Source: a virus (lineage: Duplodnaviria > Heunggongvirae > Uroviricota > Caudoviricetes). Taken from it: a stretch of DNA of 5,316 nucleotides. The number at the start of each line of letters is the position of its first letter. Position 1 is the first letter of the stretch. The notes below the pieces were generated by a model. The model saw only the letters and a program-made list of their open reading frames with translations. It was not told where the DNA came from and did not search any database. The translations under genes were made by a program, and so were the position numbers. The stretch is from IMG/VR virus record IMGVR_UViG_2671180903_000019, positions 1-5,316 of that record, one strand, 5' to 3'. Below are positions 495 through 774 of the stretch, piece after piece.

Positions 495-510
495 CTGTAC
501 ATAACCACAG
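495..510. promoter_or_regulatory. LexA (SOS) box-like operator CTGTACATAACCACAG
   Basis: CTGT-N8-ACAG architecture (CTGT 495-498, ACAG 507-510) within ACCTGTACATAACCACAGTT. It overlaps the predicted transcription start region and sits 16 bp upstream of a DinI-family start codon, the family whose chromosomal member is LexA-regulated. Confidence 0.6.
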
Positions 511-525
511 TTACAGGAGGGTGTT

Positions 526-774
526 ATGCGTGTTGAGAGCTGTATCGCTAAAGAAAAAATCAGCAAAATGCCAAAAGGTTCTGTTCCTGCCCTGCAACAG
601 GAAATGCTGCGCCGTATCAGGAAACGATATGACAATGCAGAAATCATCATCAAATCTGCCAGTAATGATGGACTCACTATTTTAAGAGCCACAGATAAAG
701 AGTCCGCACACAAATTTGTACAGGAAACACTTCAGGAAGCCAGGGAAACAGCGGACGACTGGTTTATTCACTGA
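526..774 (+). CDS. DinI-family protein (DNA-damage-inducible protein I-like), 82 aa
   Basis: ATG at 526 with AGGAGG 5 nt upstream; stop TGA 772-774. The translation MRVESCIAKEKISK...ILRATDKESAHKFVQETLQEARETADDWFIH aligns by eye along its length with E. coli DinI (MRIEVTIAK...LQETWESADDWFVSE), including the C-terminal LQE...ADDWF motif. Confidence 0.85.
   Translation: MRVESCIAKEKISKMPKGSVPALQQEMLRRIRKRYDNAEIIIKSASNDGLTILRATDKESAHKFVQETLQEARETADDWFIH

Follow-up and report, generated by a model that had tools for sequence, protein, structure and literature searches.

The 5,316-nucleotide stretch of DNA analyzed here (the window) carries, as the outermost gene of a lambdoid prophage, an open reading frame for an 82-residue DinI-like protein. 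Its sequence features suggest that this is a LexA-repressed, SOS-inducible accessory gene (moron) of a BP-4795/VT1-Sakai-type lambdoid prophage integrated in mlrA. In the mechanism that we consider likely, LexA would repress the promoter through an operator on the predicted transcript start (box B) and a weakened operator in the promoter spacer (box A), DNA damage would derepress it, and the DinI paralogue would bind RecA filaments and modulate their co-protease activity. This reading is built on the anatomy of the sequence, the family to which the protein belongs, purifying selection on its gene, conservation of the two operators, and a position at the prophage edge. The arrangement itself is already known, being annotated in VT1-Sakai, with LexA control experimentally established in Gifsy; it is real but ordinary.

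Prophage edge and the DinI-like protein

Bases 1 to 289 of the window are Escherichia coli chromosome, covering the intergenic region between btsS and mlrA (yehV) and codons 1 to 22 of mlrA. In an alignment with K-12 MG1655, identity runs to base 289 and the sequence after it is unrelated; the end of identity is the prophage/chromosome junction (att). The interrupted gene, mlrA′ (yehV′; 222 to 290, plus strand), consists of those 22 codons followed by a TGA that the junction creates. RefSeq likewise annotates a 66-nt mlrA pseudogene fragment in relatives, and the VT1-Sakai record places an attachment site in yehV at the corresponding position. From base 290 onward, the window is the tail-fibre/att end of the prophage. 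The dinI-like locus lies 236 nt inside the junction and adjoins it, in agreement with the original prediction of a gene at a prophage edge. In intact relatives the gene order is mlrA′, the DinI-like gene, espV, nleA, further genes, tail fibres, and J, and a like order is found in the Stx1 phage BP-4795, where ORF85 is DinI, ORF84 an "avirulence protein," and ORF83 NleA.

Two further features lie between host DNA and the dinI-like gene. A hairpin that resembles a terminator, T-run included (TGTCACGTTACGCGCGTGACG CAACATTTTT), spans the mlrA′/prophage junction at 272 to 301. Since its right arm is phage DNA, the hairpin was created by integration, and it could block transcripts from the mlrA promoter that would otherwise enter the prophage. 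A repeat search and alignments also revealed three tandem 11-bp repeats (TGYCCCATWSA) on the plus strand at 404 to 447, in the interval separating the att junction from the dinI promoter, with units TGTCCCATACA, TGCCCCATTGA, and TGCCCCATTGA, followed by TGCCCCATAGA. Aligned relatives with the same upstream arm have one copy fewer, and in a separate group of relatives similar 11-bp repeats abut a 5′-truncated dinI. These repeats may be arm-type integrase binding sites of the att arm.

The gene itself (526 to 774, plus strand) was assigned to the DinI family by profile searches, alignment with the sequence of DinI from the PDB, and tblastn against phages. Its product matches the Pfam DinI profile (PF06183) with an E value of 5.8e-15 and 55.8 bits against a cut-off of 24.2, and the match covers profile positions 1 to 63 of 63, so that the predicted family identity extends over the full length of the profile. 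It also matches PHROG 189, "RecA filament binding protein DinI" (E value, 4e-24), and residues 1 to 81 align with residues 1 to 79 of E. coli DinI (1GHH/7YWA; E value, 2.3e-9). Like other members of the family, the protein is a single domain, here of 82 residues, whose acidic C-terminal helix has ADDWF at its end. Within that helix, E67, E71, E74, D77, and D78 align with DinI E65, E69, E72, D75, and D76. The acidic C-terminal helix of DinI is its RecA-binding, DNA-mimicking surface, and by homology with E. coli DinI, the window protein would be expected to bind RecA and might influence induction. The score against the NCBIfam DinI equivalog model (NF007893), 55 bits, lies below its cut-off of 111. 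The protein is therefore a DinI paralogue, which fits its RefSeq name, "DinI-like family protein," and its activity may differ from that of DinI.

Pairwise comparison of six homologues gave dN/dS values of 0.13 to 0.26 for pairs below 90% amino acid identity (dS, 0.4 to 1.3), and a ratio of about 0.2 indicates purifying selection on the dinI-like coding sequence. In a check for the alpha/beta fold of DinI, a single-sequence AlphaFold2 model was all-helical and of low confidence (mean pLDDT, 65.8; pTM, 0.30), and we do not regard it as credible. In the allele shared by BP-4795 and the window, codon 73 (742 to 744) encodes Arg (..EARETADDWF) at the position aligned with DinI Trp71, which is Trp in translated relatives (motif ..TWES/VWET..). 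A functional difference between Arg73 and Trp in the predicted RecA-binding helix is possible.

Candidate LexA operators and their variation among relatives

The site CTGTACATAACCACAG at 495 to 510 is the sole match to CTGT-N8-ACAG in the 5,316 bases of the window, where 0.04 would be expected by chance; at least one match occurred in 7 of 200 shuffled sequences. It forms the core of box B (ACCTGTACATAACCACAGTT, 493 to 512, plus strand), which is the top site in the window under a LexA matrix at 15.6 bits (heterology index of about 7.8), a score reached in 7 of 300 shuffled windows. The matrix was built from 30 E. coli operators, of which the dinI operator alone was confirmed against the K-12 sequence, and with this matrix known operators score 7 to 26 bits in leave-one-out tests. 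By that measure box B is an operator of middling strength, with both core tetranucleotides intact and a score within the range of functional operators.

A consensus scan placed a sigma-70-type promoter on the plus strand at 460 to 489, with TTGACA at 460 to 465 as the −35 element and TAAAAAT at 483 to 489 as the −10 element; taken as TTGACA-18-AAAAAT, it agrees with the consensus at 10 of 12 positions. Transcription from this promoter would therefore start at about 495 to 497, inside box B, which bears out the original prediction of an operator over the transcript start. The core of box B ends 15 nt upstream of the 82-codon frame, and 5 nt separate a Shine-Dalgarno sequence (AGGAGG, 515 to 520, plus strand) from the start codon, an ATG at 526. 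The promoter is kept in all relatives with the full gene and is annotated as putative in the VT1-Sakai and mEp460 records.

A second LexA-like site, which the original prediction did not include, was observed at 464 to 483. This site, box A (CACTGGTTATCTATACAACT, plus strand), lies in the spacer between the −35 and −10 elements and is the second-best in the window at 14.9 bits, with the third at 6.3 bits. Relatives have CACTGGTTATCCATACAGAT (15.5 bits), CACTGGTTATCCACACAGCT (16.4 bits), or TACTGTTTATCCATACAGTT (23.1 bits) in place of this site, and as box B they have ACCTGTACATAACTACAGTT (17.9 bits), ACCTGTATATAACCACAGTT (18.3 bits), or CACTGTATACAAACACAGTA (20.9 bits). The right half-site of box A is degraded in the window allele, with CAA in place of the CAG that is intact in relatives. 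Both 493 to 512 and 464 to 483 are candidate LexA operators, at which LexA binding, and hence damage inducibility, would be expected from their match to the matrix.

Conservation of the operators was followed in IMG/VR loci and in annotated E. coli and phage records, among relatives whose DinI-like proteins are 61 to 83% identical to the window protein; a scan of genome contigs with the single protein as query yielded no confirmed locus. Both boxes are kept in prophages at mlrA, next to yecD, and at ssrA, as well as in the free phage mEp460, and in the ssrA group they are present even though the DNA upstream of the −35 element is unrelated. The interiors of the boxes vary between relatives while the CTG/CAG cores are constant, as would be expected if the operators are functional. 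Within the mlrA and yecD groups, conservation is just as high over the first ~20 codons as over the promoter; some of the conservation of the promoter may therefore stem from mosaic inheritance through recent recombination rather than from constraint.

Three kinds of variant locus were observed in the comparison set. One IMG/VR locus (L003, contig 2529292905_000025, ~2168 to 2187) encodes an identical DinI-like protein, but its box B has changed from CTGT to TTGT and scores 10.3 bits, and its box A is also degraded; this may be an operator-down, derepressed allele. A larger IMG/VR group (L015 to L036; for example, L019, 2880 to 3215) has dinI-like genes 69% identical over residues 11 to 81. 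The promoter, the two LexA boxes, and codons 1 to 10 are all missing from these genes. Codon 11 directly follows the 11-bp repeat region, and a search within 1.5 kb found no LexA-like site. SOS wiring is thus not universal among prophage DinI paralogues. Finally, in the ssrA-integrated prophage of E. coli FORC_028 (L041, 3566 to 3814) and in L012 to L014, the dinI-like frame has an internal stop at codon 29. Yet the two boxes of L041-type loci score 23.1 and 20.9 bits, close to consensus, and the effector gene espK lies downstream in the same orientation.

Such variation raises the question of whether the window locus is a decaying vestige, in which the operators no longer bind LexA usefully and the gene, expressed constitutively at a low level or silent, has no role. 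The loss of the core G of box A would fit this reading, as would the further decay of box B at the otherwise identical L003 locus, the internal stop in some relatives, the large group lacking the promoter, both boxes, and 10 codons, and the deletion that the prophage itself has suffered. Deletions of dinI in Gifsy are also without phenotype (PMC3121763). Box B, however, retains both cores at a functional score; the frame, Shine-Dalgarno sequence, and promoter are intact; the coding sequence shows the constraint described above; and 66 complete E. coli records contain the 361-bp segment at 440 to 800 with an identity of at least 99%. We therefore regard decay without function as very unlikely and favor LexA repression of an intact gene.

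Downstream remnants and the deletion joint

Directly after the dinI-like gene, at 780 to 835 on the plus strand, lies the 3′ remnant of a ykgJ-like gene (...STCREFPMSEENGVVN*), recognized by comparing frame translations with the ykgJ-like gene of two other IMG/VR loci (L001 and L042). YkgJ fragments are annotated in relatives, and H0002 of VT1-Sakai is described as "similar to YkgJ." The 3′ end that follows the dinI stop (780 to 850; ...REFPMSEENGVVN*) recurs after nleA in intact relatives, where it closes a frameshifted ykgJ-like gene (L001, ~10590 to 10660). Direct repeats thus flank the espV-nleA cassette, an arrangement that points to its insertion by recombination within ykgJ. An 11-mer, AAAAGTGTCCC, is also present at 399 and 839.

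The next frame on the plus strand, espV′ (979 to 1505), comprises the first ~175 codons of a type III secretion effector gene, as judged from EspV annotation and homology to BP-4795 ORF84, and it matches positions 1 to 174 of 402 in PHROG 26984. The frame that opens at 979 continues past a deletion joint into antisense terminase sequence, and its predicted product is that of a chimeric pseudogene. The original prediction had suggested that this frame might be a partner of the dinI-like gene, as in Gifsy. This did not hold, as the frame is a truncated effector gene and no small antirepressor frame is present: a search of the 204 nt at 775 to 978 for an antirepressor frame of ~70 residues resembling gfoA/gftA found only the last ~19 ykgJ-like codons and stop-rich frames. 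We also considered whether the ykgJ remnant might correspond to Gifsy irsA and rejected this, since the Gifsy-1 gene after gfoA encodes a 200-residue protein that is by eye unlike YkgJ-like sequences; the Klebsiella phage counterpart of that protein is annotated as DUF1367.

At the joint (1501 to 1505, within the region 1495 to 1515), espV codon ~175 on the plus strand is fused to the interior of a terminase large-subunit gene on the minus strand (truncated, 1501 to 2624) with 3 to 5 bp of microhomology. Phage JLK-2012 has both halves in the same relative orientation ~23.5 kb apart, and the window is thus a BP-4795/JLK-2012-like prophage with an internal deletion. Compared with JLK-2012, the missing ~23.5 kb contains head, tail, tail-fibre, and nleA DNA. 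The joint was found in 0 of 5,426 complete E. coli genomes searched, and it is either strain specific or an assembly chimera. A deletion mediated by integrase through the 10-mer CCCTGTCACG, which occurs in the att core (269 to 278) and at the joint (1505 to 1514), was rejected because the 10-mer is native to intact terL; furthermore, the espV side shares only 3 to 5 bp, and in 1.6 kb of sequence chance alone would give about one 10-mer repeat of this kind. Beyond the terminase large subunit follow the terminase small subunit, an HNH endonuclease, DUF3950, a TonB_C lipoprotein, and Rz. The stretch at 3473 to 4553 is a typical late-region set near cos/terminase, with the HNH endonuclease adjoining terS on the minus strand, a DUF3950 small protein of the YlcI/YnfO family at 3880 to 4080 on the plus strand, and a lipoprotein with a TonB C-terminal domain at 4212 to 4553 on the minus strand. 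No LexA-like site was found at the genes in 3473 to 4553.

The position of dinI ahead of effector genes invites an alternative in which the LexA-controlled promoter chiefly serves the genes downstream: transcription would read through dinI into same-strand effectors (espV-nleA or espK), coupling effector expression to damage, with DinI as a passenger. There is no intrinsic terminator and no significant RNA structure between dinI and espV (765 to 985), and dinI, espV, and nleA are co-oriented in BP-4795 and E. coli relatives. In the ssrA group, near-consensus boxes precede a dinI frame with an internal stop, with espK after it on the same strand, and in VT1-Sakai a single promoter is annotated for H0001 and H0002. 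SOS regulation of nleA in EPEC has also reportedly been described, by Mellies and colleagues in 2007. The dinI coding sequence is, however, under purifying selection, and the gene that follows it is convergent (tail fibre genes, nleC) in the majority of the contexts examined. In O157, transcriptomes under ciprofloxacin and SMX-TM show nleA unchanged or down, and the 204-nt AT-rich spacer before espV contains promoter-like sequences of its own. Nor does the EPEC regulation help this case, given that nleA of E2348/69 has no dinI module upstream; for that strain we rejected the dinI promoter as the source of nleA SOS regulation. In the window, moreover, the effector cassette is destroyed. A promoter serving mainly the downstream genes is, on balance, rather unlikely.

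A broader form of the same idea is that the conserved tandem LexA operator at the att-proximal end of these prophages forms an entry promoter, controlled by SOS, for the exchangeable effector locus as a whole. The near-consensus operators before a dinI pseudogene and espK fit such an arrangement. If it were true, damage would drive transcription through dinI into espV-nleA in BP-4795-type prophages or into espK in ssrA-integrated ones, and the supply of type III effectors would be tied to SOS independently of phage late transcription. We consider this unlikely.

Another possibility is that the dinI mRNA acts chiefly as the precursor of a 3′-derived regulatory RNA. The precedent is DinR of Klebsiella pneumoniae, in which the LexA-controlled dinI mRNA is cut by RNase E to give an Hfq-dependent RNA that represses ftsZ (PMC10907235). 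[quoted passage not shown] The 3′ flank is ykgJ remnant and differs between relatives, and the pairing region of DinR is described as Klebsiella specific (PMC10907235). Such a role for the window transcript is scarcely plausible, and we return to a protein-coding gene under LexA control.

Known systems and predicted role

The closest counterparts are VT1-Sakai (Sp15) H0001, BP-4795 ORF85, and JLK-2012 dinI, each of which is the first gene inside the yehV/mlrA site and points inwards. The window protein is 100% identical to those of BP-4795 and JLK-2012 and 61% identical to H0001, while the 76-bp promoter/operator region (455 to 530) is identical to that of BP-4795 and differs from that of VT1-Sakai at 4 nt. 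In the VT1-Sakai record (AP000400.1), the yehV attachment site is followed successively by a "putative promoter of H0001 and H0002 genes," an SOS box, H0001, and H0002. The box is a misc_binding entry reading "LexA protein, putative SOS box," and H0001, downstream of it, is entered as "DNA-damage-inducible protein I." By coordinates and alignment, that promoter corresponds to window positions 460 to 488 and the SOS box to 493 to 512. Only box B is annotated in VT1-Sakai, where the half-site of box A is intact, unlike the degraded box A of the window. The window further differs from BP-4795, VT1-Sakai, and JLK-2012 in its truncated espV and the absence of ~23.5 kb.

Gifsy-1, -2, and -3 resemble the window in having a prophage DinI paralogue directly behind a LexA box, and their dinI homologues are under LexA control, with induction on treatment with mitomycin C or nalidixic acid (PMC3121763; PMC8072944). 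The likeness is partial. The window protein is 42.5% identical to that of Gifsy-1, and Gifsy has a single near-consensus box whereas the window has two. Gifsy-1 dinI lies in the early/nin region between a DnaC homologue and NinG, whereas the window module lies at the att edge, beyond the tail-fibre/effector region. In Gifsy, dinI belongs to a dinI-antirepressor-irsA operon (Lemire et al. 2011, PMC3121763) and is followed by a small GTG-initiated antirepressor gene (gfoA/gftA; 73 residues in Gifsy-1) whose product triggers induction; the window has no such gene, and an effector gene comes next. By both the antirepressor gene and genomic position, the window locus falls outside the Gifsy type of operon.

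Chromosomal dinI of E. coli (b1061; PDB 1GHH, 7YWA) shares the family, length, acidic ADDWF helix, and LexA control, but the K-12 gene has one box over its −10 element where the window has two, the first within the spacer and the second over the transcript start. In K. pneumoniae, LexA occupies a box overlapping the transcription start site of dinI, as determined by ChIP (PMC10907235). Tum of coliphage 186 is a LexA-controlled antirepressor, has homology to DinI in its C-terminal half, and falls like the window protein in PHROG 189 (PMC3121763), but Tum has 146 residues with an N-terminal antirepressor half, while the 82-residue window protein covers only positions 71 to 149 of 151 in that PHROG.

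In an undamaged cell, we would expect a LexA dimer on box B, covering the transcript start, and a second, probably weaker dimer on box A between the −35 and −10 elements, which together would keep the promoter shut. After DNA damage, activated RecA would promote self-cleavage of LexA, the promoter would fire, and the 82-residue DinI-like protein would be made. On the model of its homologue, E. coli DinI, this protein would then place its acidic C-terminal helix in the RecA filament groove and modulate co-protease activity toward UmuD, LexA, or CI-type repressors, providing feedback on the SOS response. Since ~23.5 kb of morphogenesis genes has been lost, the gene would act, if at all, on the host SOS response or on other prophages in trans. 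Its physiological weight may be small, given that induction was not measurably altered when Gifsy dinI homologues were removed by non-polar deletion (PMC3121763). Papers on STEC phages already count DinI among the cargo and offer the speculation that it restrains induction (PMC8456039).

For annotators, the locus draws attention to a second operator in the promoter spacer and to alleles, in some lineages, in which one box or both have decayed. More generally, the sequence features suggest that prophages of the BP-4795/VT1-Sakai type, even when degraded, may add a LexA-wired DinI paralogue to the SOS network of their host. In strains with multiple copies, it is possible in principle that RecA co-protease activity, and hence the induction of Shiga-toxin prophages, would be altered.
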